A stretch of 64,000 nt of DNA from Obrimoposthia wandeli. Its lineage: Eukaryota. Shown piece by piece: positions 1-20,300 of the stretch; the stretch's first letter is position 1, and each line of letters begins with the position of its first letter. Position numbers and translations under genes: made by a program. The DNA is taken from the NCBI GenBank assembly GCA_977020255.1, contig CDROCS010006901.1, forward strand, positions 124,001 through 188,000, written 5' to 3'. Below the pieces are notes generated by a model, which had not been told where the DNA came from, searched no databases, and was given only the letters and a program-made list of their open reading frames with translations.

Positions 1-403
1 TGTGACTTATATAGTCAACTATGTGCTGTCAATCAGCACTCTCGAAATCAAATCGTGAGTCCGGCTTGGCGGCAGCTGCTACAACGGATCGATTTAAATT
101 AATTGCACGTAAATGTGCTTACCTTTTTCTGCTGACGTTTTTCTTTCTGCTGACGTTAGCAGATTTCTAAATTATTCCCGTTTTTTGCTTTTTGCACTTT
201 TGGGTTAATTAACTTAACTTTTATACATTTCACACCATACACGACCTTCGTGGTCCTCCTAATTTTTACCCTAAATTCCACTAATTTTGATTCTAAAACT
301 AAATTTAATATTTTAATTTAATTTTCAACCTTGCTTTCAAGGATTTTTATTTTAGTATTTAATCGACTAAAATATTTAAATTTCTTAATTCTCAAACCTA
401 ACA
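1..403 (-). repeat. 3' LTR (U3-proximal 403 bp visible)
   Basis: No mismatch seen by eye against 17365-17767; ends CCTAACA (TGTTAGG on the element strand) directly beside the PPT. Confidence 0.95.
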
Positions 404-1435
404 TACCTCTATCTTTGTACAACAAAACAAGATGAGTAGTATTAATATTATAAATCCAATGATCAGTGCCAGTATTGGATTAACCAATTCTAGAATACCA
501 TAACGTACTGCTGGTATTCCTTTACTCTTGATGGTTAATATTTTAAATTTGTGTGCACTTTGGTTGGACATGTCACTGAGAAGCACTATTTTAGTTTGTC
601 CAAATATGTAGTCTTCACATGTGACAACACTAACTCCATAATGTCCATTAAGTGTTATCATTTCGGTCGCTGGGACTATACACATTCGTCCTGGACATCC
701 TTTTACACACATGATCATCACGGCTCTACTGTGGGATGTCTTGATTATTTCTAGGGTGTTGTCTAGATTTCTCAAATGTAAATTATATTCGGATAGTGTC
801 ATCAATTCGGCTTTACTGGTTGGCATGGCTTGCAGTACCAATCCAATTACTACTCCATAAATCAATCCTTGTGCAACGGTGCACAGGGCCTTGACTGACC
901 TTTTGCAAAGGGTTTTAATTATCAATCGTTTGAGAGATATCTGTTTCTGATTGGTTCGTTTTGTTGTCTGTCGTTGTTTTGACATCTCCTCGATTCCATC
1001 TCGTCCGATAATCAACTGTACTGGTTTACCTTGTATCGTCAACTTTCCGAATCCATTTTTGGCGGACAAGCATGTTTTATGTCCTTCCATTGTTTCAATT
1101 ATCACTCTCTTACTTCCATACTCACGTGTTTTGATGACATCGCCGTTGAATATATACGTTGGTCCTTTTGTATCAGCATCTTTTTGTATTTCCTTTACAA
1201 CTCGTTTTCTCCGCTTGCATCCGGCGAATGTTGTTGATATTCGGTCAAGTGTGTGCTGTCGGTCAGCTTCATAATCTATTCGAAATTGATTCAGTATTCT
1301 GTTTTGTGGGTAAAATATCGCTTCATTTACTATGTTGTCTTCGATCCTTTCGTCTAGATATACAAGCACTTTGTTCGTTGGTCCATTTGGTCTTTTCATC
1401 TTTACAAACTGAAATCTTTTACTGTCGGTTCTCAT
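398..1435 (-). CDS. 3' accessory ORF, membrane protein of unknown function (internal signal-like segment, Cys-containing ectodomain, C-terminal TM); stop codon lies inside the LTR
   Basis: 345-aa ORF; hydrophobic ALCTVAQGLIYGVVIGLVLQAM and PILALIIGFIILILLILFCC; in frame with 1460-1774 across one TAG. Confidence 0.65.
   Translation of the reverse strand: MRTDSKRFQFVKMKRPNGPTNKVLVYLDERIEDNIVNEAIFYPQNRILNQFRIDYEADRQHTLDRISTTFAGCKRRKRVVKEIQKDADTKGPTYIFNGDVIKTREYGSKRVIIETMEGHKTCLSAKNGFGKLTIQGKPVQLIIGRDGIEEMSKQRQTTKRTNQKQISLKRLIIKTLCKRSVKALCTVAQGLIYGVVIGLVLQAMPTSKAELMTLSEYNLHLRNLDNTLEIIKTSHSRAVMIMCVKGCPGRMCIVPATEMITLNGHYGVSVVTCEDYIFGQTKIVLLSDMSNQSAHKFKILTIKSKGIPAVRYGILELVNPILALIIGFIILILLILFCCTKIEVC
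404..416 (-). promoter_or_regulatory. Polypurine tract (PPT)
   Basis: Element strand reads AAAGATAGAGGTA immediately before the LTR start TGTTAGG. Confidence 0.8.
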
Positions 1436-1459
1436 GGATTGAAGACATTTTCGGATGAT

Positions 1460-1774
1460 CTACACATCAATTAGTCCTAACAATACTAATAGCATCATCA
1501 GTGCCGGTGTATGGTACTGTATGGTGTAATTGTGGATTTCGTTAAACCAGGAACTATTTCCGTGGTTGGAGCCTATTTCCTGTGCTCCCGTTATCGGCAT
1601 TAAACAACTTAACAAGCCTATCGCTAGCAATCTTTGGTATTGAAAGCTGGGCACTGTTGTTGTAGCTTCATTTCTTTCTCGTTGTTGCTTCCTCTTTTCG
1701 GTGTATTTCTCTATTTCTCGAACGAGTAACGGTTTGAAATCCGTATTTGGTCTATTCTGTTTGATGTAGACCAT
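1460..1774 (-). CDS. N-terminal part of the 3' accessory membrane ORF (signal-like segment, N-glycosylation sequons, TM)
   Basis: LLAIGLLSCLMPITGA|QE, sequons NSS and NYT, ALMMLLVLLGLIDV; after TAG 1460-1462 eight sense codons lead in frame to ATG 1435. Confidence 0.55.
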   Translation of the reverse strand: MVYIKQNRPNTDFKPLLVREIEKYTEKRKQQRERNEATTTVPSFQYQRLLAIGLLSCLMPITGAQEIGSNHGNSSWFNEIHNYTIQYHTPALMMLLVLLGLIDV

Positions 1775-4442
1775 CGCTTCTTCTGGCGAGAATAATTGGA
1801 TTGATTTCCCCTTCGTATTTGTGAATCGGATACGGTATTACACTATCTTTAAGTATCTCAACTTGGAACTGTGCTCCATAGCACATGACAATTGTTTCCA
1901 ATTTACCCATGATGGACAATCCATCGAAATAGGTAACATTCAGCTTAGATATCGGTGTCTTCGCATAATTAATTAAGTTTACTCGTATCTCAGTTGATGA
2001 CGGCCATCGATTTTTTAGTAAAATTATAATTTCGTCGTTTATCGATGTGATCACACTTGGCGCGGATGATACTATTTCAGCATGATATTTTGGCTGGATT
2101 GAGTTGGTCACTTGTTCTCGGATCATATTGATTCTTTGTGGTTTTTTATTTTTAGCTTCCCACTTCCGGTATCCGCTGTCAATGCGTAACTCTGCCGTTG
2201 CTTTGATGATTTTATTGTTAGTCACTTCCGGATGGGTTGGCGAATGGAATCCTTCTATTACGCTCAACCTTACAGATACTTCCGTTTGATCTGTGTCTAA
2301 CCGGTGAGATTCTGGTATACAACATACAATTGTCTTTCCATCAAAGTATTTGGTGTCCATCTGACAAATTATCTTTTCAGTGTCAGCGTCGATTAAATGG
2401 ACTCTCATGATATCTCTTTTCCCATGTGAATTACGTAATACCATTATTACATCGTGGTATTCTTGTTTGAGTCTTTTGGTGTACCATGCAGTATGTGACC
2501 ACCGGCCGGTTCTTTTTTCTTCCTGACTGGCTAGTCCTGCTTCAGTACTGTCATAGTTCTGCCATGCAACTATGTTTGGTGTCAATGTGATTTCGATTAT
2601 CACTTTCTCAGTCGTAAACACATTGGAATTTTGATAAAGTGCTGCGACTAGTGTATTTCCGTCGTAGTATGACACTCTAAGTTCGCACAGAAATTCGTTT
2701 GTCAGTGCATCTTTCACAATGACTTCTTTAGCCACATCTGTGGGTTGTGTTTTTTCGAAAACAACTATTATCTCTTCGTCTTCTTCTAATATCTCTTGTG
2801 GTGCGACGTGTCGGATTACTTCCTTTTCCTCTTGGTACTTCATTCTGAGCATACCAATTCTCGCTGGTTTTTTCTCGCTACCACTCGTCATCATGTTTAT
2901 ATAGTTCCGATCACTTACCATTCGTGTAAGTTTAATGGTATTGGTATTCGATTTCGATTTCTGTGATCTTAACTCATATCGTGACGCATTATCTTTATTT
3001 AGTACTAATTTGCATCGATTTGCATGTACAATCATCGGTTCCTTGTTCCGATTCTCTTCGTTGATTACTTTCAAATTTGTTGAGGTTGTCTGGATCACCT
3101 TGTATGGTCCTTTGTATGGTCTATGAAGTTTAAACGATAGACCTGGTTCGATGACTGGATAAAATATCATCACTTGATCTCCGACTCTAAATTCATGCGG
3201 TTTTGCTTTTTTGTCGTATTGTTCCTTGTAACCTTCTTGATTGAATTTCAACTTCAATCCGGCTTTGGTCCAAGCATCTTGTAACCTTTCCTTCATGACG
3301 ACAATGTATTGTTCAGTTTCTAGGTACTGAGATGTTGGCTCGGTCCACTCCAGATCCATCGGCATATTGTTCTGTCTGAGATACATCAGATAGAATGGTG
3401 TGTGACCCGTCGCCTCTCGAACTGAATTCCTGTAAGCATATAAACATGAAGGTAAATATTTATCCCAATCCTCTTGCTTGTCGGAGCAATAGGATTGTAC
3501 CATCATACATAAAGTTTTATTAAACCTTTCTACCAGACCATCTGTCTGTGGGTGATATGGTGAAGTTTGTAACTTCATGATTCCGAATATCTTCGATACT
3601 GCTTTGATTACTTCTCCAGTGAAGTTCTTACCTTGATCCGTTAACAACTTTCTAGGCACTCCGTATCGAAATATTATCTCTTCTACTAAGATTTGTGCTA
3701 TTGTTTCAGCCTTCTGGTTCTGTATGGGATATGCTTCTACCCATCTCGTCATGTAATCCGTAAATACTATGACATACTTGTTTCCTTTACTTGATTCTCT
3801 CAATGGTCCCAATATATCCATCGCTGTGAATTCCATTGGTGCCAAGGGAACTGGCATTGGTTTCAGTGGAACTTTAGTACGAGTTCCGGTGTCTTTTCTG
3901 GTTAAACATACTTTACATTGTTTACACCATTGTTTTATGTCGTCTTCCATACCATCCCAATGGTACTTCTCTTTGATTCTGGCTATTGTCTTTCGCCCTG
4001 ACAGATGTCCTCCTAGTGTTCCGTCGTGATACTGGATCATCACTGCTGTTTTCAATGACTTCGGAATTACTACTACTATCTTTCCGACATTATTGACAAT
4101 ATACAAGATGCCTTCTTTTATCGAGTATTTTTTCGTCATTTCATCGTTTAGATCTCCTTTCACCAACAATTCTTTAGTTAGACTCAGTTCTTCATCTTCT
4201 TTCTGTTCTTTGATGATCTCTTTGTCTATTTTACCCGTCTTTAGCAAAATCGTCAGTAGATTTGCTTCTCCTTTTTGGTCATTGGTTTCATCTTGTTTTT
4301 CCTCTGGAATTATGTTTCCTTTTTCATCTACATTTGTCAATCTCGACAAACAATCTGCGTTGCCGTTCGACTTTCCGGTTCTATAACGGATTTCTAGATC
4401 GAATTCGGCCAATTTTAGAAACCATCTGTTTAATCTACTCAT
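1752..4442 (-). CDS. pol part 3: RNase H end, integrase (HHCC, DDE, GPY/F) and a ~380-aa C-terminal extension with three repeats
   Basis: H..GGH...CKQC; AMDILGPL, TDQGKNF, QTDGLVERFNKTL; PYKGPYKV; three YxDG-containing repeats. Confidence 0.95.
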   Translation of the reverse strand: MSRLNRWFLKLAEFDLEIRYRTGKSNGNADCLSRLTNVDEKGNIIPEEKQDETNDQKGEANLLTILLKTGKIDKEIIKEQKEDEELSLTKELLVKGDLNDEMTKKYSIKEGILYIVNNVGKIVVVIPKSLKTAVMIQYHDGTLGGHLSGRKTIARIKEKYHWDGMEDDIKQWCKQCKVCLTRKDTGTRTKVPLKPMPVPLAPMEFTAMDILGPLRESSKGNKYVIVFTDYMTRWVEAYPIQNQKAETIAQILVEEIIFRYGVPRKLLTDQGKNFTGEVIKAVSKIFGIMKLQTSPYHPQTDGLVERFNKTLCMMVQSYCSDKQEDWDKYLPSCLYAYRNSVREATGHTPFYLMYLRQNNMPMDLEWTEPTSQYLETEQYIVVMKERLQDAWTKAGLKLKFNQEGYKEQYDKKAKPHEFRVGDQVMIFYPVIEPGLSFKLHRPYKGPYKVIQTTSTNLKVINEENRNKEPMIVHANRCKLVLNKDNASRYELRSQKSKSNTNTIKLTRMVSDRNYINMMTSGSEKKPARIGMLRMKYQEEKEVIRHVAPQEILEEDEEIIVVFEKTQPTDVAKEVIVKDALTNEFLCELRVSYYDGNTLVAALYQNSNVFTTEKVIIEITLTPNIVAWQNYDSTEAGLASQEEKRTGRWSHTAWYTKRLKQEYHDVIMVLRNSHGKRDIMRVHLIDADTEKIICQMDTKYFDGKTIVCCIPESHRLDTDQTEVSVRLSVIEGFHSPTHPEVTNNKIIKATAELRIDSGYRKWEAKNKKPQRINMIREQVTNSIQPKYHAEIVSSAPSVITSINDEIIILLKNRWPSSTEIRVNLINYAKTPISKLNVTYFDGLSIMGKLETIVMCYGAQFQVEILKDSVIPYPIHKYEGEINPIILARRSDGLHQTE

Positions 4443-5215
4443 CTCATCTCTATGTTTATATAAGAACTGTAGTGGTTTGTGATCTGTATACAGGAATACT
4501 TTTGTCCTAGCAAATAGTGTCTATATTGTCTACATGAATACACTATGGCTAGACATTCCTTTTCGATAACAGAGTATCCTCTTTCGGCTCTGTTTAATCC
4601 TCTACTCGCATACGCGATGACGTGTTCTCTTCCTTCGTCATCCTCTTGTCCCAATACTGCTCCTACAGCATAGTTACTTGCATCTGTCATGAGTATGAAT
4701 TGTCGGTTTATATCTGGAAACGCTAATATTGGTGCTTTTATCAGTCTTTCTTTTAAATGCTCGAACGCTTGTTGGGCTTCTTCTCCCCATATGAACTTCT
4801 CATCTTTTCTCGTCAACTTTCTCAGTGGTGTTGGTATATCTGAAAAATGTTCAACAAATCGTCTATAATAATTCGCAAGACCTAAAAAACTCTGTATCTC
4901 TTTAACAGTCTTTGGCGCTAAATGCGCTTTTACTTTCTCGATCTTTGCTGGATCAGGTCGAATGCCTTCTTTCGATACTATATGTCCTAAAAATGTTACT
5001 CGCTCTTTGGCCCATTCGCATTTTGTAGGTTTAACTTTTAATTTAGCGTTTTCCAGTCTTTTAAATACAACTTCAAGATTTTTTAAATGTTCTTCGAACG
5101 TTTTCGAAAATATTATTATGTCATCAATATAAACCATCGTGTTTGCACACGATGCGAGTACAAAATTCATACAACGCTGAAATGTTGCTGGAGCTCCTGT
5201 CAGTCCGAATGGCAT
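4439..5215 (-). CDS. pol part 2: reverse transcriptase C-terminal half and RNase H (frameshifted at both ends)
   Basis: MPFGLTGAPATFQR, YIDD, FLGHIV, TDASNYAVGAVL, YSVIEKECLAIV. Confidence 0.95.
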   Translation of the reverse strand: MPFGLTGAPATFQRCMNFVLASCANTMVYIDDIIIFSKTFEEHLKNLEVVFKRLENAKLKVKPTKCEWAKERVTFLGHIVSKEGIRPDPAKIEKVKAHLAPKTVKEIQSFLGLANYYRRFVEHFSDIPTPLRKLTRKDEKFIWGEEAQQAFEHLKERLIKAPILAFPDINRQFILMTDASNYAVGAVLGQEDDEGREHVIAYASRGLNRAERGYSVIEKECLAIVYSCRQYRHYLLGQKYSCIQITNHYSSYINIEMR

Positions 5216-7125
5216 CTTTTCGCATTCGTATAATCCATCTCCGCAGTTTTGTGTTTATCCTCTTCCTCTATCTCGATTTGCCAGTATCCACTCTGCAAAT
5301 CCAATGTCGTAAAATAATCTGAATTACCCAATTTATCGAGCATCTCTTCGATTCTAGGTAATGGATACACATCTTTTCTTGTGATCTTGTTCAGTTCTCT
5401 GAAATCTATACAGAATCTAATTTTCACATCCTTCTTTTTTACCAACACCACAGGTGCTGAGAATGGCGAAAAACTCGGTCTAATTACTCCTGTTTTAGAC
5501 ATATCTTCAATCTGACTTTTTACTTCATCTTGTAATTGTAATGGTACTCGGTATGGTCTTCTTCTGACTACTTTGTCTTCTGTCAGTGGTATTGTATGTT
5601 TTATGACAGGTGTTTCTCCTATGTCATATGGATTTTTTGCAATTACTTTTGGAAATTTATGTATTAGATCAAGTAATTGTTTCTTTTCTCTAGTTGTCAG
5701 TCTTTCTGATTGGATTACTATTTCTTCGTAATCATTCGTATCTTTATCGAGTTTCATAGCACACACGGTGGGATTCTCCATCTGTGCTATCTTTCCCAAC
5801 CTCATTCCTCTGTATAATAGGATGTCATTGTTGGTTGTATTCATCAGTCTAACTGGTATTTTGTGGTTTTCGATCAGGCATACTGTACTCACAACTGGTA
5901 ATTCGTATTTCTCTATGAAATCTCGTGATGGTTCGAACACAACTGGTCCTTTATCTTCTGATAATGTGTGACCTTGAATGAGAAATTGTGATCTTTTACC
6001 GATTTTTATAGGATTCTCTATAATTACATCAATTTGGTTTATTTGTCTGTTTGATGTGCTATCCTTCAATCTTGGATCTTGTAAATCAATACTTATCCCT
6101 TTAAGTTGTGATAGTACATCCATTCCTAAAATTGTAGGTTCAGGACATTCTTTCATGATTCTAACTGGTATAGTGATCGTATTACGTCCAATTATAAATG
6201 TACATGGTAATATTCCCGTCACTTTTACAGGGTCTCCATTGACCGATACCAAGAATTCATCTGGTTCTGCCATTGTTCGTTTCTGTTCCTCTGTCAAACA
6301 GTCTTCACTTACTATCGAAGCTACAGCACCTGTATCAATTAAGGCTTTTACTCTTAAATTATTTACTCTAATGATAGCTGCTGGTCGCTGTGCTCCATTT
6401 ATGTTTCCCATATGGTATATTGTATTTATCGAATTATTACACTCTGTCAGTCCACTTCCTGTGTTTGGATAGTGGAATCTAATGTTTCTCACTTGTCGAT
6501 CTATTATTCTTCGACAAATCGGACATGATACCATTTCATTCGCACATCTCCGACATGTTCTTACATGTCCGCATGGTAGAAAGGCAACTTCTATTTTGTT
6601 GATCATGCAAACTGCGCATTCCGGATCTTCTAGTACGTATTCCAGTTCATTTATGTACTCTTTCTCTTTTGTTTCAATTGTACTGTCATCTTTATCTCGC
6701 AGTAATTCAAAAATCGATCCGTATCCGTTTCGCGTAGTTTTTATTTTTAATTCTACCAATTCTCTGATTCTTTCTGCTTCTTTTGGATATAATCTTCTCA
6801 CGAATGACACTACCGGTGTGTCTTGTTGAGCCAAAATCTCTTTCCGTGTGATTTGGTATTCGATTATACATTCGGTTTTCTGTTCTTTTTGCTTTATTTT
6901 GTTTTTAAAAGTACAAAATTCGCAAAATTCATGATGTAAAATTTTCTTAGGTAGCTCAAGAGTGTATCTGTCGATAATTCGTTCTTTTTTACACTTGTGG
7001 CATTTAATTACGTCTTTACCATCCTTTTTTATAGCAAAAAGTCCCTTTTTTGCCAATTTTTTAAGTCTTGGATCTTCGAAGGTTACTTCTCGATATTGTT
7101 CGTCACATTCGTTCACTTCTCGCAT
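5200..7125 (-). CDS. pol part 1: degenerate BIR, IAP-type C3HC4 RING, retropepsin 2, RT N-terminal half
   Basis: LAKKGLF..DVIKCHKC..HHEFCEFC; CAVCMINKIEVAFLPCGHVRTCRRCANEMVSCPICR; ALIDTGA...ILGMDVL; RFCIDFRELN, YPLPRIEEML, LDLQSGYWQI. Confidence 0.93.
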   Translation of the reverse strand: MREVNECDEQYREVTFEDPRLKKLAKKGLFAIKKDGKDVIKCHKCKKERIIDRYTLELPKKILHHEFCEFCTFKNKIKQKEQKTECIIEYQITRKEILAQQDTPVVSFVRRLYPKEAERIRELVELKIKTTRNGYGSIFELLRDKDDSTIETKEKEYINELEYVLEDPECAVCMINKIEVAFLPCGHVRTCRRCANEMVSCPICRRIIDRQVRNIRFHYPNTGSGLTECNNSINTIYHMGNINGAQRPAAIIRVNNLRVKALIDTGAVASIVSEDCLTEEQKRTMAEPDEFLVSVNGDPVKVTGILPCTFIIGRNTITIPVRIMKECPEPTILGMDVLSQLKGISIDLQDPRLKDSTSNRQINQIDVIIENPIKIGKRSQFLIQGHTLSEDKGPVVFEPSRDFIEKYELPVVSTVCLIENHKIPVRLMNTTNNDILLYRGMRLGKIAQMENPTVCAMKLDKDTNDYEEIVIQSERLTTREKKQLLDLIHKFPKVIAKNPYDIGETPVIKHTIPLTEDKVVRRRPYRVPLQLQDEVKSQIEDMSKTGVIRPSFSPFSAPVVLVKKKDVKIRFCIDFRELNKITRKDVYPLPRIEEMLDKLGNSDYFTTLDLQSGYWQIEIEEEDKHKTAEMDYTNAKRCHSD

Positions 7126-10100
7126 AACTTCGATATATCTTCAATTCGACTATTCGTTATTACTCTACCTGTTATTAGGGCTGATTCTCCTTTTGGAATC
7201 CCGTCACTGTAATCGAAATCGGGTGCTTTTCCCGTTTGGATTTCTGGTACGTTTGAAGTTTTTAGTTTTAAAAGAAATGGACAATTTGGTGCATCTCTTT
7301 TATGACGTCTCATTGGGTTTTCATTCTGTTCCCATTCTCTAAACTTTACTCTACACCATACGCATCGTACTACTATCTCCTGACCATAACTGCTTGTCGC
7401 GTTTAACATTTCTAAACCTGATCTTGCCATTTTACGTGCCATTCCTTTTGAATAGTACTGTTCTAATATATTTCGTCTCTTTCTCTCGAATCTCATGGGA
7501 TCCCTTTCTGACAGATTTACATATGTTATTTTTCTCCTCGTCGTATCTTGTGGTCCGAAATTTACATTTTTGTAGTGAAGTATCGACTTTGCTAGCGCTT
7601 CCTGTTTTCTGTCTGGGTACGAACCTCCCATACGGAACGTAGTGCATTTTTCCTTTTCGACTATGGGTCCTCTCAACATTTTTATCTCTCTCACTGAACT
7701 GTCATTCTTACAACTCTTGTTGTTTGGTAGTATAATTATTCCTTCAAACATTCGTATTACGTCCATCCCAATCATGACTGGACTTCCGCAATCTGTGAAT
7801 ATTCTAGCATTTAACTGCAATGCTCTTCCATCGATATTCAACGAACATTTCAGTGTTCCTTCCGACACTACATCTGTACCATTCACGTTAACAAATGTCT
7901 GTTTTCTAGGACATACTTCTCTTAATTCTTTTGATGACAAGATTTCTTTACTTAGCACTGATACTGCTGATCCGGTATCAACTTCGGCAAGATATTCTCT
8001 TCCGTTCAATGTTACTGCTACTTGTGGTGGAGCATTTGGATTCTCATTTGATATTCTAGATTTCAGAATTCTTCTGGAATTATCTTTTTTGTCTTTTTCC
8101 TCTGCTTGTGGAATTTCACTGTAGCTCACTTTAGGCCATCTTATCATTAAGATGCCTCTCTTGAACTTTTCCTTCTCTTCCTTCAATTCCTTCATTGGAT
8201 ATAGGTTTAACGCCACTTCTTCCTTGTCTGGTAACGGAATCTTTGATTTTCCTGGTATCTTTGCATATACTTCTGGACTATCATTATCGTCGTCGTTGTC
8301 GTCTCGATAGTTTCTTGGTTCTCGCATCATGGTTCTCGTTTGGTGTTGTTCCTTCTTGAGGGCTCGCAACTCGTTCTCGTGATGATGGTGCATTAGATAT
8401 TTTGCTAAAAATGGAAAACATCCAATTATAAGTTGCCAGGTGATTCCGGTTATCCTGTATAAACTATACGTAGACAACACCTGGGCTATAATTACCTGCA
8501 CAAATTTAATTATAACATAAATACCTATGATACCCGAAAATAGTTGTCCTAAAACAAGGAATTTTCCCCACATCTTTCTAAGTGTCTGATGTGCTGCTTC
8601 CTTGAAATGACTTGGCGATAATAACATATCGAAATTCGCATATCTCGCTCCTGGCGGTAATGCTCGATGTACCATCTCCGTAAGTACTCTGGCTCTTCTT
8701 ACTGGAAACATTATTTCGTTCCACGCCGCTTTTAAATCTTTTTCATTGTACAATCCTGCGTTCTCCATATTTTCCACCGCTTGGAATTTCATTTTACCTT
8801 TAAGGTTCGTCATTCTTATCATCGCTGGGGTTGTCGTTGGCTTTCGATCAGGTAACGTTATCCATAGATTATTCGTCATCTGATATTCAGGTGCCATTAT
8901 ATTAGAGCAGCTGATTTCTTTAGTTGTAGTGTCTTTTGGAAGTAACATTCTCGTGATTGGTTCAACAAAAAGATCTTTTAAATTATACGTTACTGCCAAT
9001 TCGCTCGTACATCGATCTGTTTTTCTCAACTGTACCTCTACTTTATTACACTTGTAAGTATACAATACTTCTCCCATGGTTTTAGCAAATACTCCTTCAT
9101 CCAAGGGTAATAATGGTGCTACCATGTCTGGATTCGTAATAGCTAATGCTAACTTTGTTCTTACGATCTCTTTGTTTAACTGGCAATCTCTTTCGATCAT
9201 CATCCGATATAACTGTTCCATTTGCATCAATCCTTTATGATAATAGAAATCAATTTTATTATTAAAATACGTGTGTAGCTGCATATCTTTAGGTTTTAGC
9301 TTGGTTTCTGCCAATGCTATTGCTTCTTTAGACAAAACTATTCCTGGATAGTTTGTAGTACTAACAGTCATTCCGCATCGCGCTTTGTTTCTCTTTTTAA
9401 TAAATATCAATCCTTCTTCTATTGATGTTGCCATTAACAGTGTAGGTGTCTTTGTCATTGGAATTGGTCTTGTTTCATTTAGCAATCCTTTTCCAACTTT
9501 ATTATACAGGAATCCTTCTCCATCTTTATTATACAGGAATCCTTTTATTTTATTAAAACTAATCTCTTTCAAAAATACTAAAGAGCATTGCTTCGGATTT
9601 ATGTTATACACAATTGTGGATTCACCTGTAAAACAAGATGTATCTGTCATTTTACATTCTGGATACTTCATCATTAGTTGTGTCTTTTTATCAAAATTGG
9701 CGGTCCATGTTTTTAATTCAATTTTGTAAGTTACGTCCATTACTAACTCAGATACTTTGGTTCCACGCACGTTTTTTGTTTCTCCGTCACAAGATCCATC
9801 GGCCCATCGTTGTCCGACTCTCGTGACTGTTTCGTATCGTCTCACTCCAATTTTTACTTCAGGTTTGTAATTCTTGTCTACCTCTATTGTTCCCGTTCGA
9901 AATGCGTCTTCGCAATCTCTCGGCAAAACCTTATGTGCCTTGTACGGTGTGGTAGGTGTGATTTCTGACATAAAACTTCTATGACCACAATAGAATTCGT
10001 GATAACTTGAATGGATTGAACATTCTTTCACTTCTACTTGTGCTTTATCAACATCCTGATACACAAAGTAGTTTTCAACACCTTGAACTTCTAGTTTTGA

Positions 10101-11849
10101 CGGTTGTGACTCTGGGCAGTCTTCGCTGTCAAGCAGTGAATACTTTTGTCCCATCTTTGGTATGCTACAGTCATATGCTATCAATCCTGATGCCTGTTGC
10201 ATTCCCATAAACATTACTAACATCATCATCATCATTGTTGTGGACATATTTGGTGGATTGTTTCTCTCTTTCGGACGGTATTGTTTATTTTCCTTTTGAC
10301 GATTCTCATGACATTGTTCGTCATCGTCTTCATTCATTTCCACAATGATTTTAGCGTAGTCACTTAATTTTGCCCAACCTCCATTTTCGTCAATTCGTCT
10401 CTGTAATACATTCTCTATCAAATACATCGCTTCATTTATTCCTTGTTTGACTTCGTGAGGTTGGCTCGTTCGTTCCGTCAATTGGAAACATAGATATGTG
10501 ATCGCTGTAATTAACTTTTTATTTGTAGTCTGATTTCCGCATAGTCTCGCTAAAACTTCACCGTCATAAAATCTATCTATCGATGCATGGTATACATGAT
10601 TCGCGGTCATTCTCTTTACTGCAGACATCTGTGATCTGACTGCTTTAGTCAAATTGTCTGTTATATCGGTTGTTTCATCTCTGTACATTTTGAACAACTT
10701 CGGCTTCACTTGCCTGAGAATTCCCGTAAGTATATCTTTACTACTTGGAGTTTCCGAATTCATATCACCTCTGATATCTTCATTCCTCTCTGCACTATAC
10801 TGCTCTAATGACGCTGCTAACTGTCCAATACTTAGATGTCTCTCTTCATCAGTTTGTGGTGCTGTTAGAACATTTCGTAATATACTTTCGCCTTTTCTAG
10901 GTCTTCCAGGTCCTCTTCGAAAATACTGATACTCAGTTTGATTCTCTCCTGGATCATACGTTTCACCATTATACTGTATCTCTTGACTTGGTCCTTCTTC
11001 ATGGCCAATCTCTTCACTTTGTCGCATCATTTGCTCTGCTTGTCTATCTTTGTATGCGGCATGCCAAATTGGTGAATCCAAATCTACAATCTCGGAGACT
11101 TCGTCTTCTCCTACTAGTTGGGTTACGGTTTCGTTTTGTCTCACTTGGTTAGCTGTATCCGTGACTTCATCTTGTCTGATTGGAATTATATCTGGTTCTG
11201 GTGGCACCTCGACCACTGGAGTTGTCAACTCATTTTCTAAATTCATGTCTTGTAATTCAGTTACGTACGGTTCTGGTGTGGATGTCTTGTTCCAAGCTTC
11301 AGCTACATCATTATCTCCGCTTTCACTTGAACTGTCTAAAATTTCTATAGGCGTTTTTATCATTTCTAACGCAGAATTCAATATCTCGGTTAATCCTTCA
11401 TTATCTACTAACTCTTGACGTCCTACAGTGATGACATCAATTTTTTCCTCTAATTCATTTCCTATCGGATATCCAAACTCGACTGGTACGTCCTCATCAT
11501 CTAGTGATCTCCCTTTATAATGGAACAACATATTCATTCCATCAATTTCAAGTTTCTCGGCTAACTTTTTCCGAATCGTTTTCATTGTTTGATACACGTT
11601 AAGTTTTTCATGTATTATCTGTCCGGAAATTAATCGAAGTGAAATTTTCATCGTTCCTTTTTGGTTTGATCTCTGTACGTAACGACCATAACCTTTCAAT
11701 AATCCTCGGGTTACTTCTTTGTAACCCAAGTTATCATGACTATGTTTAACCAATTCTGCTCGCACTTCTTCCAATCGGTGCACTTTAATTGTTTGCAATT
11801 TGGCCAAAACTTCTGGAGCTTCACTCGTTTCATCTAACGGTTGATTCAA
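7113..11849 (-). CDS. Multidomain polyprotein: Ub/SUMO-like, AT-hook, Bcl-2-like, signal peptide + chuvirus-like envelope glycoprotein + TM, retropepsin 1, BIR
   Basis: 1578-aa ORF (track start is TTG); RRGPGRPRK; RIDENGGWAKL; LIAYDC..CGH..GSCDG..YFNNKIDF..RDCQL..GEVLYTYKC; AEVDTGS..MIGMDVI; VRCVWCRVKFREWEQNENPMRRHKRDAPNCPFL. Confidence 0.88.
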   Translation of the reverse strand: MNQPLDETSEAPEVLAKLQTIKVHRLEEVRAELVKHSHDNLGYKEVTRGLLKGYGRYVQRSNQKGTMKISLRLISGQIIHEKLNVYQTMKTIRKKLAEKLEIDGMNMLFHYKGRSLDDEDVPVEFGYPIGNELEEKIDVITVGRQELVDNEGLTEILNSALEMIKTPIEILDSSSESGDNDVAEAWNKTSTPEPYVTELQDMNLENELTTPVVEVPPEPDIIPIRQDEVTDTANQVRQNETVTQLVGEDEVSEIVDLDSPIWHAAYKDRQAEQMMRQSEEIGHEEGPSQEIQYNGETYDPGENQTEYQYFRRGPGRPRKGESILRNVLTAPQTDEERHLSIGQLAASLEQYSAERNEDIRGDMNSETPSSKDILTGILRQVKPKLFKMYRDETTDITDNLTKAVRSQMSAVKRMTANHVYHASIDRFYDGEVLARLCGNQTTNKKLITAITYLCFQLTERTSQPHEVKQGINEAMYLIENVLQRRIDENGGWAKLSDYAKIIVEMNEDDDEQCHENRQKENKQYRPKERNNPPNMSTTMMMMMLVMFMGMQQASGLIAYDCSIPKMGQKYSLLDSEDCPESQPSKLEVQGVENYFVYQDVDKAQVEVKECSIHSSYHEFYCGHRSFMSEITPTTPYKAHKVLPRDCEDAFRTGTIEVDKNYKPEVKIGVRRYETVTRVGQRWADGSCDGETKNVRGTKVSELVMDVTYKIELKTWTANFDKKTQLMMKYPECKMTDTSCFTGESTIVYNINPKQCSLVFLKEISFNKIKGFLYNKDGEGFLYNKVGKGLLNETRPIPMTKTPTLLMATSIEEGLIFIKKRNKARCGMTVSTTNYPGIVLSKEAIALAETKLKPKDMQLHTYFNNKIDFYYHKGLMQMEQLYRMMIERDCQLNKEIVRTKLALAITNPDMVAPLLPLDEGVFAKTMGEVLYTYKCNKVEVQLRKTDRCTSELAVTYNLKDLFVEPITRMLLPKDTTTKEISCSNIMAPEYQMTNNLWITLPDRKPTTTPAMIRMTNLKGKMKFQAVENMENAGLYNEKDLKAAWNEIMFPVRRARVLTEMVHRALPPGARYANFDMLLSPSHFKEAAHQTLRKMWGKFLVLGQLFSGIIGIYVIIKFVQVIIAQVLSTYSLYRITGITWQLIIGCFPFLAKYLMHHHHENELRALKKEQHQTRTMMREPRNYRDDNDDDNDSPEVYAKIPGKSKIPLPDKEEVALNLYPMKELKEEKEKFKRGILMIRWPKVSYSEIPQAEEKDKKDNSRRILKSRISNENPNAPPQVAVTLNGREYLAEVDTGSAVSVLSKEILSSKELREVCPRKQTFVNVNGTDVVSEGTLKCSLNIDGRALQLNARIFTDCGSPVMIGMDVIRMFEGIIILPNNKSCKNDSSVREIKMLRGPIVEKEKCTTFRMGGSYPDRKQEALAKSILHYKNVNFGPQDTTRRKITYVNLSERDPMRFERKRRNILEQYYSKGMARKMARSGLEMLNATSSYGQEIVVRCVWCRVKFREWEQNENPMRRHKRDAPNCPFLLKLKTSNVPEIQTGKAPDFDYSDGIPKGESALITGRVITNSRIEDISKLCEK

Positions 11850-11869
11850 CGTCTCCTTAGCTTCACTAA

Positions 11870-13846
11870 TTATCTTTTTACATCTTCCATACTCGTAGCA
11901 TTTCTCGCTGCTTCCACATGATCAGTCATAGGTTGTGCGTTACACGTTTTCTCTATTGGTGTCTCATACGCTTCTAGTATTCTATTCATTAAATCATTCA
12001 TCTCTTCTCTCGAGTGTAGACTTTTCTCTTGTTTCGACAACGTAGATGAATTCGCCATCTTTGTATGTGGTGAATCTTTAATTATTCCCAACATTCGTTC
12101 AAATTTACTATCACTATCTTCAAAATCTATTTCGCGTCGAAGCTCGGTCTCGCGATTCCTATCACTGTCATCGCTTACATAACTAAAATTTCCTTTCGGT
12201 TTCGGCGAACTCTCTCGACTATTTGTCTTGTCGACATTATTATTATTATATCTACCAGAATTATTATATATCTCAGCTCCTTGCTGTCCTACGTAATTAT
12301 TGTATCTCTCAGCTCCTTGCTGTCTGTCTGCATAGTTATTGTATCTACCTGGTGACTGTTGTCTATCTGTATACTGATTATTCAGTCTCCATGGCTGTGG
12401 AGTATATCCACCACCTCTATTCCATGGCGGAGGTGAATTATATCCTCTATAATTATTTCCAAAATTATTATTACCGAAATTATTATTTCCAAATCTGTTA
12501 GCTCCGAACTCTTTACTTCTCGTACAATCTCTCGAATAGTGACCCATTTGTTTACACGTGTAACACATTATTCTCCCTCGAATATCTATCTTATTTTGTT
12601 CATCTTCAAACTGTACTCGACGACTATTCTGTCTATTATCATAGCGTCCTCTAAAATCATTTCTTCGGAAATTCGATTCAAAACCGCTTCCTCGATTATT
12701 GAATCTTCCGTCACTATTTCCTGTATTATTTCCAAATCGAGAGTCACTTCGCTCTCCTCTGTTGGCGTTATAATTCCTATCGTCTCCTCTCCAAGGTTGG
12801 CGATTTCCGGAATTATCTCTATTAAATCTATTCCTGGAATCATCTCTATTTCTATTCCACGAATCATTATTATTTCTACCTCTTGAATCATCTCGATTCC
12901 TGTTCCAAGACTCACTATTATTTCTACCTCTCGAATCATCTCGATTCCTACTTCGGAAATTATCTCTATTTCCGTTACTGGATTCATCTACTTTTTCAAA
13001 CTTATTTTGTCCATAATTTCGATTCTGAAAATTACTCGGTTCTGTTTTATTCACGAAGACCTTTGTCTTATCGTCGTCACCTGCAGTCATTGCGTAAATT
13101 GCCAATGCTGCATTATTTTTTATATTTTTCTCAATCTCTCTCGCCTTTCGTACGGCATTATCAAAATCATTTGTATCCGATACTGCTAATAACACTTTAA
13201 TATCCTTTTTCAATCCTCCTCTAAATATATCTAACAAAACCTCTGCCATTTCATTTTGGTTCCGGTCATTTTCCGCTGCTTGTGCTTCTGGAGCTACAGG
13301 ATTACCGTCCTGATTTCTCATTATTCTTCTTGGGTACGCTCTTGCGGCCAAGGTTCTCAAAACATATGCGTATTCATTCACGCCTTCATCATGTTTCTGT
13401 TTCCGTTCTCTCATGAGTCGCTTATTTACTTTGGCTAAGTCTCCTAATACCAATTTTCCAATAAAAGCATTTTCCAACGTTGGCCAGTCTAAACGTTCTG
13501 CTTCTGTCAAATGTTTATACACTTCAAGTGCTAATCCGGTTAAATGTGCCTGTACTCTGACACATTTTTCTCTATCGTTCCATCCTTGAACATCTGCACA
13601 ACTCGAATATTCTGCGAGAAAGTCACAAATACTTTCCTCATCTCCTTTAAACTTTGTAATCTGCAATGATCCTGAAAAATTGGGTCTCAACGTCGCATTT
13701 AAAGCTTGTGCCAACTGCTCGGCATTCATTTCACCTACATTATTTCCTGCATTAATATCTGCTTGAGCTCCTGGGTGAGCCATATTTTCAGCTATATCCT
13801 CTTCAACTATTCCTTCAATATTATTTACTTGAACTTCTTCAATCAC
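11870..13846 (-). CDS. gag: Gag (retrotransposon capsid domain, R/N/D/G-rich repeats, CCHC zinc knuckle)
   Basis: ITKFKGDEESICDFLAEYSSCADVQGW capsid-like region; CYTCKQMGHYSRDC; track start is GTG, first ATG at 13783. Confidence 0.92.
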   Translation of the reverse strand: MIEEVQVNNIEGIVEEDIAENMAHPGAQADINAGNNVGEMNAEQLAQALNATLRPNFSGSLQITKFKGDEESICDFLAEYSSCADVQGWNDREKCVRVQAHLTGLALEVYKHLTEAERLDWPTLENAFIGKLVLGDLAKVNKRLMRERKQKHDEGVNEYAYVLRTLAARAYPRRIMRNQDGNPVAPEAQAAENDRNQNEMAEVLLDIFRGGLKKDIKVLLAVSDTNDFDNAVRKAREIEKNIKNNAALAIYAMTAGDDDKTKVFVNKTEPSNFQNRNYGQNKFEKVDESSNGNRDNFRSRNRDDSRGRNNSESWNRNRDDSRGRNNNDSWNRNRDDSRNRFNRDNSGNRQPWRGDDRNYNANRGERSDSRFGNNTGNSDGRFNNRGSGFESNFRRNDFRGRYDNRQNSRRVQFEDEQNKIDIRGRIMCYTCKQMGHYSRDCTRSKEFGANRFGNNNFGNNNFGNNYRGYNSPPPWNRGGGYTPQPWRLNNQYTDRQQSPGRYNNYADRQQGAERYNNYVGQQGAEIYNNSGRYNNNNVDKTNSRESSPKPKGNFSYVSDDSDRNRETELRREIDFEDSDSKFERMLGIIKDSPHTKMANSSTLSKQEKSLHSREEMNDLMNRILEAYETPIEKTCNAQPMTDHVEAARNATSMEDVKR

Positions 13847-14424
13847 TACTGGATTGGCAATTTCAATTTCTTCTGGGTTTTGAACTTCAAGATTATCAAT
13901 TTCTTCTGGGTTTATGTCACCAATTAACTCAGTCAGATCAAAACTATCGGTTGAAACTGCTGATTGATTTACGTCTCTTTCTGATACGTTTTCTTCGACT
14001 CTAGTCTTTTCTGTTACTTTGTTATCTGTTTGGGGAACCTGTTCAATTCGGTTAACTTTATTATTATTTGTCTCTTCCTTGGGAATCTGGCTTTGTCTTC
14101 AAGTATTAAACGCGGGTCCTTTTCTATTATCCGTTGTCTTATCAATTATGTATTCGTTTACGATATCAATTTACTTATTATTTTTATCTTATTTCACAAT
14201 TCTTATTTTACGATTTTTTATCTCTTTAATTAGTTCGAGGACAGAGTCTCCCGACTTAACCTATTCAATTAATTACTTCGAGTATCAATCCACTCGATTC
14301 TCACTTTATCAAATTTATTTACGATTTTATCTTTTTAATTAGTTCGAGGACAGAGTCTCCCGACTTAGCTTATTCAATTAATTACTTCGAGTATCAATCC
14401 ACTCTATTCTCACTATCAAATTTA

Positions 14425-15019: not shown

Positions 15020-15039
15020 TCTCAATTTACTTATATCTT

Positions 15040-15235
15040 CTTCTGAAACTTATTCTCAATTGTCTATATTCTTCTGCTGAAACTTATTCTTAATTTATCT
15101 GAAACTTATTCTCAATTTATCTGAAACTTATTCTCAATATCTGAAACTTATTCTTAATATCTGAAACTTATCTGAACTTATTCTATTTACCTGAAACTTA
15201 TTCTCAATTTTCCAAAACTTATCTGAACTTATTCT
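15040..15235. repeat. Degenerate ~20-22-bp tandem repeat in the 5' leader
   Basis: Repeated CTGAAACTTATTCT(C)AAT. Confidence 0.85.
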
Positions 15236-15263
15236 ACGTGAATTCGCTGTGTCCGACGAGCTA

Positions 15264-15281
15264 TCCTCACTCGGGGCACCA
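15264..15281 (-). promoter_or_regulatory. Primer-binding site, elongator tRNA-Met type
   Basis: Element strand TGGTGCCCCGAGTGAGGA; plus strand TCCTCACTCGGGGCACCA resembles the 3' end of animal elongator tRNA-Met (..GATCCTCACACGGGGCACCA, recalled from memory). Confidence 0.85.
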
Positions 15282-15346
15282 CTTTAATATGTTGGGGTTT
15301 CTATACGAAACTCGGTATAGATCCTCTTGAGTGCGGAGGGCCCCAA

Positions 15347-15358
15347 CGTGAGTTCGAT
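15347..15358 (-). promoter_or_regulatory. Putative primer activation signal (complement of the tRNA-Met T-arm)
   Basis: Plus strand CGTGAGTTCGAT equals the tRNA-Met segment just 5' of the PBS-paired region; next to the stem GTTGGGG(15291-97)/CCCCAAC(15341-47). Confidence 0.6.
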
Positions 15359-15769
15359 TAGAAGCAGGTCTTAAAGTTGGTCGTGGCCTACTTAGTTTTA
15401 TGGTTGCCTAATCTCTTGTACTATCTGAAGGTATTTGATTTGATGTCTCTTATTCTGAAGGATGCAAAAACAACTTGTTCTAATGTAGGAAATTGTTTAT
15501 TTGTAATTCACGAACTAAAACACAACAATACGTTTATGTACGTATTTTCTAAAAAGTATAGTAAAATTCCTAAGACTTCTGTAAGTCTCTACAACAAGTG
15601 GGGATGAACCACGTATCGATTTTATGTTAAGGGTGATCGAGTTTTTAGAGTCGTTCTTCTAACTCGCGAATAAGCTCAAGTTAAGATTTTCAAATTAATG
15701 TGACTCTTATGTCAAACTCTAACTTTAATTCCCAATTTAACTTTAATGGCAACTTTTATCTTTATACCA

Positions 15770-16436
15770 AAACTATGGCAATTTAGAAAAAACTTCTCTT
15801 CAAACTTTTATGGCAATTTAGACAAAAACTTCTCTTCAAACTTTTATAGCAATTTAGACAAAAACTTCTCTTCAAACTTTTATGTCAATTTAGACAAAAA
15901 CTTCTCTTCAAACTTTTATGGCAATTTAGACAAAAATTTCTCTTCAAACTTTTATGGCAATTTAGACAAAAACTTCTCTTCAAACTTTTATAGCAATTTA
16001 GACAAAAACTTCTCTTCAAACTTTTATGTCAATTTAGACAAAAACTTCTCTTCAAACTTTTATGGCAATTTAGACAAAAACTTCTCTTCAAACTTTTATG
16101 CAATTTAGACAAAAACTTCTCTTCAAACTTTTATGTCAATTTAGACAAAAACTTCTCTTCAAACTTTTATGGCAATTTAGACAAAAACTTCTCTTCAAAC
16201 TTTTATGGCAATTTAGACAAAAACTTCTCTTCAAACTTTTATAGCAATTTAGACAAAAACTTCTCTTCAAACTTTTATGTCAATTTAGACAAAAACTTCT
16301 CTTCAAACTTTTATGGCAATTTAGACAAAACTTCTCTTCAAACTTTTATGGCAATTTAGACAAAAACTTCTCTTCAAACTTTTATGGCAATTTAGACAAA
16401 AACTTCTCTTCAAACTTTTATGGCAATTTAGACAAA
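15770..16436. repeat. 36-bp tandem array (~18 copies) inside the LTR
   Basis: Unit AACTTTTAT(GG/AG/GT)CAATTTAGACAAAAACTTCTCTTCA. Confidence 0.95.
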
Positions 16437-16489
16437 TTCTAATGTCAAACTTTATGACAATTTTAGGACAATTTAGACAATTTTATTAA

Positions 16490-16768
16490 TCAAACTTTAT
16501 GATAACTTTAGGACAATTGAGACAAATTTTAGTAATCAAACTTTATGATAACTTTAGGACAATTGAGACAAATTTTAGTAATCAAACTTTATGATAACTT
16601 TAGGACAATTGAGACAAATTTTAGTAATCCAACTTTATGATAACTTTAGGACAATGGAGACAAATTTTAGTAATCAAACTTTATGATAACTTTAGGACAA
16701 TTGAGACAAATTTTAGTAATCAAACTTTATGATAACTTTAGGACAATTGAGACAAATTTGAGTAATCT
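16490..16768. repeat. 46-bp tandem array (~6 copies) inside the LTR
   Basis: Unit CAAACTTTATGATAACTTTAGGACAATTGAGACAAATTTTAGTAAT. Confidence 0.95.
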
Positions 16769-17369
16769 CTCTTACGTTTTTTGTCTCGAGGTTGAGGTAT
16801 CCTGAAGCGTTCCGGAATATACTGAGATCGAACACAAAAACCGATCGGCTGACTGAATTGGAATTTCCGAATGAAAATTCGCTGATATAGTGCTGACTGG
16901 AACAACGATTGAACTGGTTTACAAGCTCTGCTCCGTGATAGATCGAGATTTGTATGTCGCTGTTACGACGTTGCCCAAATCCGTGATAGATTGATCTTTA
17001 AGTCTTGTGTTGTATTGTCGCGCTTCGTCTATTCCGTCTTCTGTCTGGTCTCAGGAGTATTGATTGAGTGCGGTATTGATTTCTTATTTTTTCTGGGACT
17101 GTGTTTTGATTTACACTTTGTTGCTTTATATCTTTTCTAAGACTGAATTTTTCTCCAATTCAATTTCGCACTCTCTGCTAATTTCGAGGCTTATTTCTCT
17201 TTTCTAATCTGCCAAAGTGCTTTACCTGGAGAAATAGGTTAACTGCACTTAACTAAAAATTGCTCACCTCTGGACGATTAACACCTGCTTTTCCTCCAAT
17301 TCAACTTTTCTCTATCAGAGCCTCCGAGACTTGTTTCTCTCGTTTTTTGTTTTGTAGGAAGTGCTGTGA

Positions 17370-17377
17370 CTTATATA
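17370..17377 (-). promoter_or_regulatory. Candidate LTR TATA box
   Basis: Element strand TATATAAG ~390 bp into U3; TATAAAG at ~17124-17130 is an alternative. Confidence 0.3.
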
Positions 17378-20300
17378 GTCAACTATGTGCTGTCAATCAG
17401 CACTCTCGAAATCAAATCGTGAGTCCGGCTTGGCGGCAGCTGCTACAACGGATCGATTTAAATTAATTGCACGTAAATGTGCTTACCTTTTTCTGCTGAC
17501 GTTTTTCTTTCTGCTGACGTTAGCAGATTTCTAAATTATTCCCGTTTTTTGCTTTTTGCACTTTTGGGTTAATTAACTTAACTTTTATACATTTCACACC
17601 ATACACGACCTTCGTGGTCCTCCTAATTTTTACCCTAAATTCCACTAATTTTGATTCTAAAACTAAATTTAATATTTTAATTTAATTTTCAACCTTGCTT
17701 TCAAGGATTTTTATTTTAGTATTTAATCGACTAAAATATTTAAATTTCTTAATTCTCAAACCTAACAATTTTATTAATTCTTGAATCTATAATTTGAGTT
17801 TCATCAAAAAATATTTTATTGAAAAATTATTCTTTAGGTTCAATTTTAAAAATATATAATATTAGGTATTGATATTTTAATAGTAAATGAGTTTAGAATA
17901 AAATAATGAATAGGGCTTGAAATAAAATTATGGGTAGGGTTATACGCATAGATGTATGTAAGCAATAGACTAATATATGGAATCAATATAGAAATATTAT
18001 TACAAATATTAGGAAGAAACTTTTGATTCCTACTTCAATTAGAGAAAATAATTATTTTTATTCATTTTTAGACCACATTGTAACTTTCTGCAACAAATAT
18101 CTGTGTTTCTGTGATTTTAACGAAGGTCGAAAATTTACTAGACCATAGTTTAAATTTAATAAACTTTTTCTAATTGGCCGTAGTTTAAAATTTATGAAAT
18201 CATATTGCAACTATTTGCAACTTATGTGCAAGTTGTATGCAATAAATGTCTTAGTTCTGAATTCCTTGAATTTAAATTTATGTAAACGCTTTCCACTCAC
18301 AAATAAAAGTAAATGAAATTACTCAAAATAAGCTATTTTTAAATTTGACAAATACTTCTAAAGAAAATAATCTTTGTGTTAAATTTTTTTAAAAATTGCT
18401 AAGCCTTTTAAAAATTTAAACCAAAATGATTTTTGGAGAAAAAATTGACGTTAACATTTAAAATTTGAATTTGCACACACAAATATTGATGCGTTTAAAG
18501 AAAATGAGATGAAAACTGACGTACTATATTACATACTGACCATCAAATTAAATTGGCTTTAACGTACTCGGCTGAAATTTGAGCTACATTCCATAACCTT
18601 AACGAACTCGATTAAAATATGTTCTACATATGGTTTCCATGGTAATGACAAATGTTCTCAAAATAAAACTGGTCTAGATCTCTCGGAAGGTACCCACAGG
18701 CTTTCTACTATTTGTTTAAGTATTCAGATCCTACTACTTACTACCGATAAGAAATTTTATTCAAATTTAAACAATACTCTTCAAAAAGTTTGTGTATCAA
18801 TAAGAAATTGATATATGCTTATTTTCTCGTTTAAAAAATCTATATCTATTATTAGTATTTTTTGACATATATGGATTTAATAGATAGAAATTTATACGAT
18901 ATCTAAAGAATATATTTCAATTACCATGTAGGTGTTATTGAGTTTTAATAATATTCGATTATACTTAATGTAAACTTATCTAATACAGGTTCCTCTAATG
19001 CTTTTTCTAACCCTTGTCATTAATTCATTTATTTATGTTTAATTTGATTTAAACTAAATGGGGTATTATTATTATGAATTATTATATTGTACACATACAT
19101 ATTTTGTAAGTATTTCATTATATATTCCTTATATATTTATCTGCACACCATTAGACTTATCTGAGGATACATACATACACACATACATAAATTTAAATAA
19201 AACACTATTCCCTATCGCTAATTTATTTTACTTAATTTTGATTCTTAAAGGTCTGGTGCTACTACTGACCCAACTACTCACCTGCTACTCATGTTGATGG
19301 TACTGAACCGTTTTACTGTATATTTAGTGGCAGTGTTATTAATAAAAGATGTTGAAATTTAAAATATATTTTTCTATAAAAAGAATTCAAATACAAATGT
19401 TGTAAAAATGTTGTACCTGTAATAATAAAAAATAACTTGTGTCTTTGTAGGTTGGTTCTCGAAAGTCTGACCAAGATTAGACTATGTGATTTATGATGGG
19501 CTTTAATAAGTAGTTTTTTATAAATTGAAGGAGGACCAAGTTTTGTGGTCTATCCTATAGTGACAATATGACCTTATGACCACCTTAAAAATACAAATCT
19601 AATATAGTAAATGGGAACACTTGCCAACGCAGTCGGCCATGATGAGTTATGCCATAATCGGAATGAAGGCACCTATCCGTTTAAAACGGATATACTAGGG
19701 AGAACGACCATGAAAAATGATGTGCTCATGAGAAACTTTCGTCGAACACCAGATAATGCAGACTGTAAAAAGGTGCTCATTGAAATACTGGTTTATATAA
19801 ATTATGATTCAACTTAAAATTTGTTTTTTAAAATTCTTAAGTTTAGTCATTTAAACGCTAATTAATTGTTCTTTGTGATATTTTCTCTGTTTATTAAAAT
19901 CTCGATCAATGTAACTGCACCTATAGTTGCAAATTAGGTATATAATAGGATGCCATTAAACTGAAGAATTTTTTTAAAACTATCAGAAATCCATGCTGAA
20001 AAACTCGAATATTTTATGTTTGTTTACTGAGAACGACAGCATCATTAAAATACAATAAGAATAGAGTTGAAGCTATGGTAAGAGACAGTTGACTACTCCC
20101 TTTAAGAGCAATCGAAGGTAAACTAAAGCCTGTACATGTTTGATGCTTATCGACAGATAACTCATCCAACCCTAAATTAATGAGGCATATGTTCAAAGAC
20201 AAGATTATTGACTTTCATTACCCTTAACACACCATTCCCAGACCAGTAGTTTTTCATATAGAGAAGCTCATGCAGCCTATTTTTGTTGTTGTTGTTGATG

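Follow-up and report, generated by a model that had tools for sequence, protein, structure and literature searches.

Two U5 boxes complementary to the elongator tRNA-Met primer of a Burro-like Ty3/gypsy retrotransposon: probable extended primer contacts resembling those of HIV

A Burro-like gag-env-pol Ty3/gypsy retrotransposon of 19.7 kb, located on the minus strand of the 64,000-nt stretch of Obrimoposthia wandeli DNA analysed here (the window), probably grips its tRNA primer at three places, much like HIV. Besides a primer binding site (PBS) for elongator tRNA-Met, the element contains a box resembling a primer activation signal (PAS) and a second box, named box A. The target of box A on the tRNA abuts that of the PAS-like core, and box A, the PAS-like box and the PBS tile nucleotides 38-76 of the tRNA with no gap. 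We regard the U5 boxes, with a probability of about 0.65, as extended primer-template contacts analogous to the HIV-1 PAS and to the HIV-1 contact at nt 142-148. Coordinates are shown in Table 1; we infer the R/U5 border, and hence the U5 location of the boxes, from the candidate AATAAA at 15501 only.

Table 1. Positions of the retrotransposon features in the window
Feature	Position	Strand	Description
3' LTR start	1..403	-	extends out of the window; ends ~1,930 nt before base 1
Coding region	398..14098	-	Pfam; several frames in the window copy
Downstream PAS near-copy	15237..15246	-	tRNA 57-48, one G·U; weaker
PBS	15264..15281	-	complementary to the 3' 18 nt (76-59) of host elongator tRNA-Met; 19 nt (76-58) with 15263
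Spacer, LTR end to PBS	15282..15289	-	8 nt, conservation ~0.95
5' LTR	15290..17767	-	2,478 bp, TG...CA ends; a 4-bp target-site duplication flanks the element
U5 terminal stem GTTGGGG/CCCCAAC	15291..15347	-	encloses two hairpins (15339-15323, 15321-15300); minimum free energy (MFE) fold
PAS-like core	15347..15355	-	complementary to tRNA 56-48 (5' strand of the T arm, start of the T-loop)
3-nt extension to the 12-nt box	15356..15358	-	tRNA 59-57; subfamily-specific
Conserved U5 stretch	15385..15394	-	predicted to pair with and mask the PBS 5' half in free RNA
Box A	15423..15432	-	10 nt, complementary to tRNA 47-38 (variable loop and anticodon-stem 3' strand)
Box A'	15454..15461	-	8 nt, tRNA 46-39 (46-36 in several subfamilies); weaker second copy
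Candidate poly(A) signal AATAAA	15496..15501	-	from sequence

The LTR recurs at the start of the window with 100% identity over 403 nt, and the 5' and 3' LTRs, the latter taken from the genome, were 99.2% identical over 1,853 nt. Pfam domains in the coding region comprised a gag zf-CCHC, a chuvirus-type (Monjiviricetes) fusion glycoprotein, a protease, BIR, RING, a second protease, RT, RNase H and integrase. The LTRs, the target-site duplication, gag, the PR-RT-RH-IN order and a gB/chuvirus-type env between gag and pol place the element among the GAG-ENV-POL members of Ty3/gypsy (Metaviridae). A search with a pattern on the flanks of the box gave 17,385 LTR sites in the genome. The window copy (398-17767) carries frame shifts near 11900, 7120, 5230 and 4480 and two 3' coding stretches without annotation, and some other copies have open frames of more than 5,000 codons. 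Tandem arrays were found in the leader and LTR (14430-15019, 15774-16436 and 16417-16767, with units of 49/50, 36 and 46 nt), and their length is not equal between both LTRs. Elsewhere in the window, 22020-22661 (plus strand) is a host TDP-43-like coding stretch (Pfam TDP-43_N and RRM), and the region from about 25186 to 64000 consists of a 10.3-kb unit repeated about four times with ~99% identity, each unit having a 404-nt piece of large-subunit rRNA (30794, 41134, 51489 and 61884) and 51/52-nt repeats.

The PBS was complementary, without a mismatch, to the tRNA-Met(CAT) gene of the host with CCA added, in agreement with the preliminary description of this sequence, which had assigned it to the 3' 18 nt of elongator tRNA-Met. 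The genome contains 54 matches to the tRNA-Met 3' motif in tandem arrays, and the ARAGORN calls, at four loci, had one sequence common to 38 of 43. Arrays of the elongator gene with a period of ~284 nt are located on contigs C2252 (1-11900) and C2837 (586000-598000). By established criteria the host tRNA-Met is the elongator and not the initiator, because it carries G1:C72 and a GTTCGA T-loop. The organisation does not correspond to the bipartite PBS of Ty1 and Ty3: the PBS is a full one of 18-19 nt for elongator Met, and the boxes are in U5.

The 12-nt box ATCGAACTCACG (15358-15347, minus strand) matched nt 59-48 of the host tRNA-Met exactly and was separated from the PBS by 65 nt; the ARAGORN tRNA gene does contain the complement of the box in its T arm, and the upstream T-arm match proposed before was thereby corroborated. 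The box occurred once in the window, and 0 of 100 shuffles had a match. The 190-nt U5 was subjected to 20,000 dinucleotide shuffles: 12 nt matching tRNA 1-59 turned up in a fraction of 0.0004 and the specific core 9-mer in 0.0007, while one match of at least 9 nt appeared in 0.026 and two in 0.00045 (0.045%). Eight of 672 window tiles had one tRNA match of at least 9 nt and none had two. When control tRNAs were used, which were of bacterial type with encoded CCA (from an RF00005 search of the genome), 2 of 40 had a U5 match of at least 9 nt, one of them labelled Met and possibly a host variant. Clusters of such bacterial-type tRNAs with encoded CCA and short integrase ORFs unlike that of the element were seen among loci L128-L157 and L158-L176, and point to bacterial contigs in the assembly.

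Conservation was evaluated on family copies sampled by their PBS and not by the box. The U5 regions of 76 loci were aligned, 64 being kept and 12, with less than 55% identity to the window copy, dropped. For the 9-nt core the majority fraction was 0.985, ranking 4 among 182 nine-column windows, with only LTR-end windows higher, and the GAA of the core was invariant (65 of 65 rows at each position). Box A, which was absent from the earlier account of the sequence and was found by comparing U5 with the host tRNA, had a majority fraction of 0.955 (rank 23); the U5 stretches beside the boxes had 0.70-0.89. The core is therefore better kept than the surrounding U5, and it lies upstream of the PBS inside the LTR and matches tRNA-Met 56-48, the position and target of a PAS; these are, however, family members of common descent, and the LTR-end stem is conserved as well as the core. 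The core was also paired in divergent subfamilies, L068 having a G·U variant. Among the 12 dropped rows, it was fully paired in five (one via G·U), had one mismatch in three and was in a missing region in four. The few box changes within the family were a mix of pairing-keeping and pairing-breaking ones. Without recourse to an alignment, 47 loci with an exact PBS had the core fully paired in 42, box A in 40 and the 12-mer in none, this sample excluding the subfamily of the window copy by design. Among the first 100 listed of the 17,385 flank-selected sites, the core was intact in 95, with a perfect 12-mer in 26 and an 11-nt form in 22. The best 30 DNA matches all had the 12-mer; they were picked by similarity and were therefore left out as evidence of conservation.

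These data show that the family-wide box is the 9-nt core, complementary to tRNA 56-48, and that the 12-mer is a young derived form. The conserved signal corresponds to tRNA 48-56, because the core is kept throughout the family and the extension, with a majority fraction of 0.77, is not. In a midpoint-rooted tree built from 50 U5 sequences after excision of the box (5 of the 55 were left out, and the 12-nt rows had been picked as near-copies), the eight 12-nt rows formed one supported clade nested in 11-nt forms, which were in turn nested in 9-nt forms. The 12-nt form would be unable to pair fully, because the PBS already occupies nt 59 and because m1A is normally present at nt 58. The argument drawn previously from the rarity of a 12-nt match was thus overstated: such a match is rare in shuffles, but its length belongs to one subfamily.

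Other complementary stretches were evaluated as contacts and rejected as too variable or too short. Box A' had a conservation of 0.80, near background, and the downstream near-copy had a mismatch opposite nt 54 in many family copies. Six leader repeats (15103-15227, minus strand) carry a 7-nt match to tRNA-Met 44-38, in the target of box A, and may be due to chance amplification.

Relatives of the element with a switched primer were not found in an env Pfam search (30 of 30 loci were the same family, with 89-97% identity to the window copy), nor in a search for distant homologs (24 of 24 the same family, ~97-98%). A pattern designed to exclude the elongator-Met PBS gave 150 matches, and the 100 listed were all damaged sites of this PBS. 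About one quarter of the damaged PBSs (100 listed, including L188-L217) had an identical one-base deletion, which suggests either that one variant has been propagated or that the assembly contains a systematic error. Integrase Pfam matches, which were distant or non-LTR, were set aside. In viral contigs, two single-protein scans gave no match, an alignment scan yielded 21 loci, none of which had a usable tRNA PBS, and the two matches of a PBS scan were dismissed as GC-rich chance matches.

The GTTGGGG/CCCCAAC stem and the inner CTATAC/GTATAG hairpin that had been noticed earlier were both recovered in the MFE fold, together with a third hairpin. The arms of the stem are at 15347-15341 and 15297-15291, the 3' arm being the LTR end, and those of the hairpin at 15320-15315 and 15306-15301. 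The first G of the stem is the last G of the box, and in the predicted fold the stem brings the core to about 9 nt from the PBS. A U5 inverted-repeat stem also adjoins the PBS in RSV/ASV. The outer-stem positions were paired in 60-65 of 65 rows with almost no compensatory change, and the fold energy of the region was not better than that of shuffles (z = -1.0). In free RNA the predicted unpaired fraction was 0.77 for the box and 0.19 for the PBS, which would be masked, and both boxes were mostly exposed in the predicted fold; with the PBS blocked, the prediction for the core was 0.54 vs 0.77 in free RNA. The duplex energies were -40.8 kcal/mol for the PBS, -15.7 for the core and -15.0 for box A, and the opening costs were 4.2-5.3 kcal/mol for U5 and 3.4-5.1 for the remainder of the tRNA. 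Because the duplex energies exceed the opening costs, both box helices can form according to these figures, which ignore pseudoknot geometry and penalties as well as tRNA modifications.

The predicted masking of the PBS raises the alternative, which we consider unlikely, that the core is kept for intramolecular folding, the CTCAC of the box pairing with the GTGAG of the PBS in a PBS-masking switch. Such pairing is inherent in the sequence because the T stem is self-complementary, and the participation of the last G of the box in the U5 stem would also be in line with it. However, it is through 15394-15385 and not through the box that the MFE fold masks the PBS, leaving the core largely unpaired, and neither the invariant GAA nor box A finds a partner in the PBS, yet both match the tRNA.

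If the boxes are primer contacts, as we prefer to read them, the following sequence of events may be envisaged. In free RNA, the U5 stretch 15394-15385 would mask the PBS. The zinc knuckle of Gag (NC) would anneal the tRNA's 3' end to the PBS, with the acceptor stem and the T stem being opened; this would free tRNA nt 48-56 for pairing to the PAS-like core, after which the variable loop and the 3' anticodon strand could pair with box A. These contacts would select and hold the primer and set up the initiation complex, and the RT would remove the box contacts while copying U5.

In a metagenome scan, a PBS for elongator Met was found at no fewer than 116 loci. Among the 116 loci listed, 10 had short upstream DNA, 79 were GC-rich chance matches, and 17 and 10 were AT-rich with and without an LTR-like ACA junction, respectively. 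The boxes were scored against the tRNA-Met of the window host as a proxy, and the tRNA of the loci's own hosts may differ. Counted by lineage, four of the eight represented among the 17 junction loci had an exact box of 9 nt or more, vs 2 of the 79 GC-rich control loci; no box was found in the other four lineages (L222/L270, L242, L249 and L331). L254 has the layout of the window element, with 10 nt complementary to tRNA 47-38 at -160 and 7 nt to 56-50 at -85, and L256 and L276 have anticodon-arm boxes. These boxes of 9-10 nt in L254, L256 and L276 were equalled by 0, 7 and 5 of 300 shuffles, respectively. A retroelement protein was found, among the box-bearing loci, in L276 only.

Eleven of the metagenome loci formed one group, in which the sequence preceding the PBS had a mean identity of 58% (46-79%) and, past the junction, did not resemble the window LTR; no retroelement protein was found in the group, and its assignment rests on the LTR-like junction. 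A 9-bp box to tRNA 56-48 was fully paired in nine of the 11 loci and degraded in the other two. All changes in this box were A-to-G opposite U or C-to-T opposite G, that is, they keep wobble pairing. In 8 of 11, tRNA 38-27, in the anticodon arm, was matched by 10 or more contiguous pairs, and a box to tRNA 9-2 was rejected, being not above shuffles. Conserved hairpins lie between the boxes of this group, and five loci (L219, L229, L244, L267 and L287) have an ORF of ~170-190 codons about 950-340 nt before the PBS, possibly inside the LTR; this ORF had no family match in Pfam or the Atlas. In L249 (PBS at 3441) and L277 (PBS at 4001), in the element's orientation, the complement to tRNA-Met runs past 18 nt into the T arm; the two have 51 nt in common at 94% and could be tRNA retrocopies or an extended PBS.

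A contiguous complement beyond the PBS, as in L249 and L277, is what could be expected if the boxes were functionless relics of tRNA cDNA, left by plus-strand read-through into the primer with a stop near nt 38. The coverage does stop close to the modified anticodon loop, at tRNA 38-36, and template switching by the RT could account for stepwise growth of the box through 9, 11 and 12 nt. We nevertheless hold this origin to be very improbable, since box A, core and PBS follow one another in the element in the order opposite to that of a single cDNA and the boxes are better conserved than the spacers. There is similarly little probability that the boxes are signals at the DNA or protein level (integrase attachment neighbourhood, poly(A) downstream element or opposite-strand Pol III B-box) and that their match to the tRNA is incidental or ancestral. 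The boxes are flanked by the candidate poly(A) signal on one side and by the LTR end, the site of the top-conserved windows, on the other, and the plus strand of the 12-mer resembles the Pol III B-box motif; but the three bases completing this motif are missing in most subfamilies, and the two boxes abutting on the tRNA and the wobble-only variation in an unrelated group are left unexplained. Each of the three alternatives covers a part of the data, and none accounts at once for the invariant GAA, for box A and for the wobble pattern.

The more than 17,000 LTR copies, together with unrelated elements that share the primer and vary by wobble only, offer natural comparative evidence for selected pairing of U5 with the T arm and the anticodon arm. 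As a tentative generalisation, which we think rather doubtful, LTR elements primed by elongator Met may have evolved, repeatedly and independently, U5 'splints' opening up the greater part of the primer body (nt 27-56), being natural equivalents of the HIV-1 PAS, variable-loop and anticodon contacts, including those of the Met-adapted laboratory mutants; the grip might still be tightening, from 9 to 11 to 12 nt in the youngest burst. With the contacts proposed here, PAS-type control of the primer would reach beyond retroviruses to the Ty3/gypsy elements of animals, and the short RNA with long perfect boxes is easy to probe.

Like Burro/GYPSM1 and the flatworm GAG-ENV-POL errantiviruses (PMC6431247, PMC13524379), the element has env between gag and pol, BIR/RING, long LTRs and thousands of copies, and its env resembles, by eye, an entry in an errantivirus supplementary table of PMC13524379. 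The planarian Burro exceeds 30 kb and carries BIR, MATH, ankyrin and BCL2-like extras (PMC6431247), unlike the present element of 19.7 kb, in which Pfam gave no MATH or ankyrin match; no named Burro protein was among the 120 protein matches listed. A Met_CAU PBS, of elongator-Met type, is recorded in 3+1 of 1,151 errantiviruses with a PBS, and five S. mediterranea entries have the PBS given as 'none' (PMC13524379), so that our results would supply a primer for a flatworm-type element class of that kind. The sections of PMC6431247 and PMC13524379 consulted describe no U5 boxes for Burro or flatworm errantiviruses, and our literature search, in which subscription journals were thinly covered, found no description of tRNA-matching U5 boxes for gypsy elements of animals.

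Other LTR retrotransposons, too, contact the primer outside the 5' PBS. Ty1 and Ty3 have a bipartite PBS for initiator Met, the second part being in U3 in Ty3 (PMC5371799), and Drosophila gypsy has 5' and 3' Lys sites, that is, a second PBS (PMC1635307). In contrast to Ty3 and gypsy, with a second site at the 3' end of the RNA, the element described here has a full 18-nt PBS and upstream U5 boxes, and its primer is elongator Met instead of initiator Met (Ty1/Ty3) or Lys (gypsy). Among retroviruses, a U5-TPsiC contact has been proposed for avian sarcoma virus and none for MLV (PMC3185550; PMC13191261). The U5 box that would pair with the T arm is similar to the interaction with tRNA-Trp in RSV/ASV, but the second box has no counterpart among the alpharetroviral contacts in the cited part of PMC3185550.

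Judging from sequence, the feature, which is real and conserved, appears to be a variant of the known retroviral U5-primer contacts, analogous to the PAS and variable-loop contacts. The HIV-1 PAS corresponds to nt 123-130 and the anti-PAS to nt 48-55 of tRNA-Lys3 (PMC3675109, PMC3185550), although the PAS remains in dispute, since mutations in it perturb the local structure as well (PMC3185550). As in HIV-1, a U5 box lies ~65 nt upstream of an 18-nt PBS and is complementary to the same register of the tRNA (48-56). It differs in belonging to a Ty3/gypsy element primed by elongator tRNA-Met, in its nine perfect pairs and in its predicted exposure, the PAS of HIV being buried in a U5-leader stem; the earlier reading is supported as to elongator-Met priming and the existence of a PAS-like U5 box, which is predicted to be mostly unpaired. 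The nt 142-148 region of HIV-1 contacts the 3' anticodon stem and variable loop, with an additional A-loop/anticodon contact, and HIV-1 kept tRNA-Met stably once the PBS and U5 were both matched to it (PMC3185550). Box A targets the same part of the tRNA as nt 142-148, with 10 nt; it lies upstream of the PAS-like core, in an order opposite to that of HIV, and the anticodon-arm boxes of L276, L256 and the 11-locus group are natural likenesses of the HIV-1 anticodon contact and of the Met-adapted mutants.
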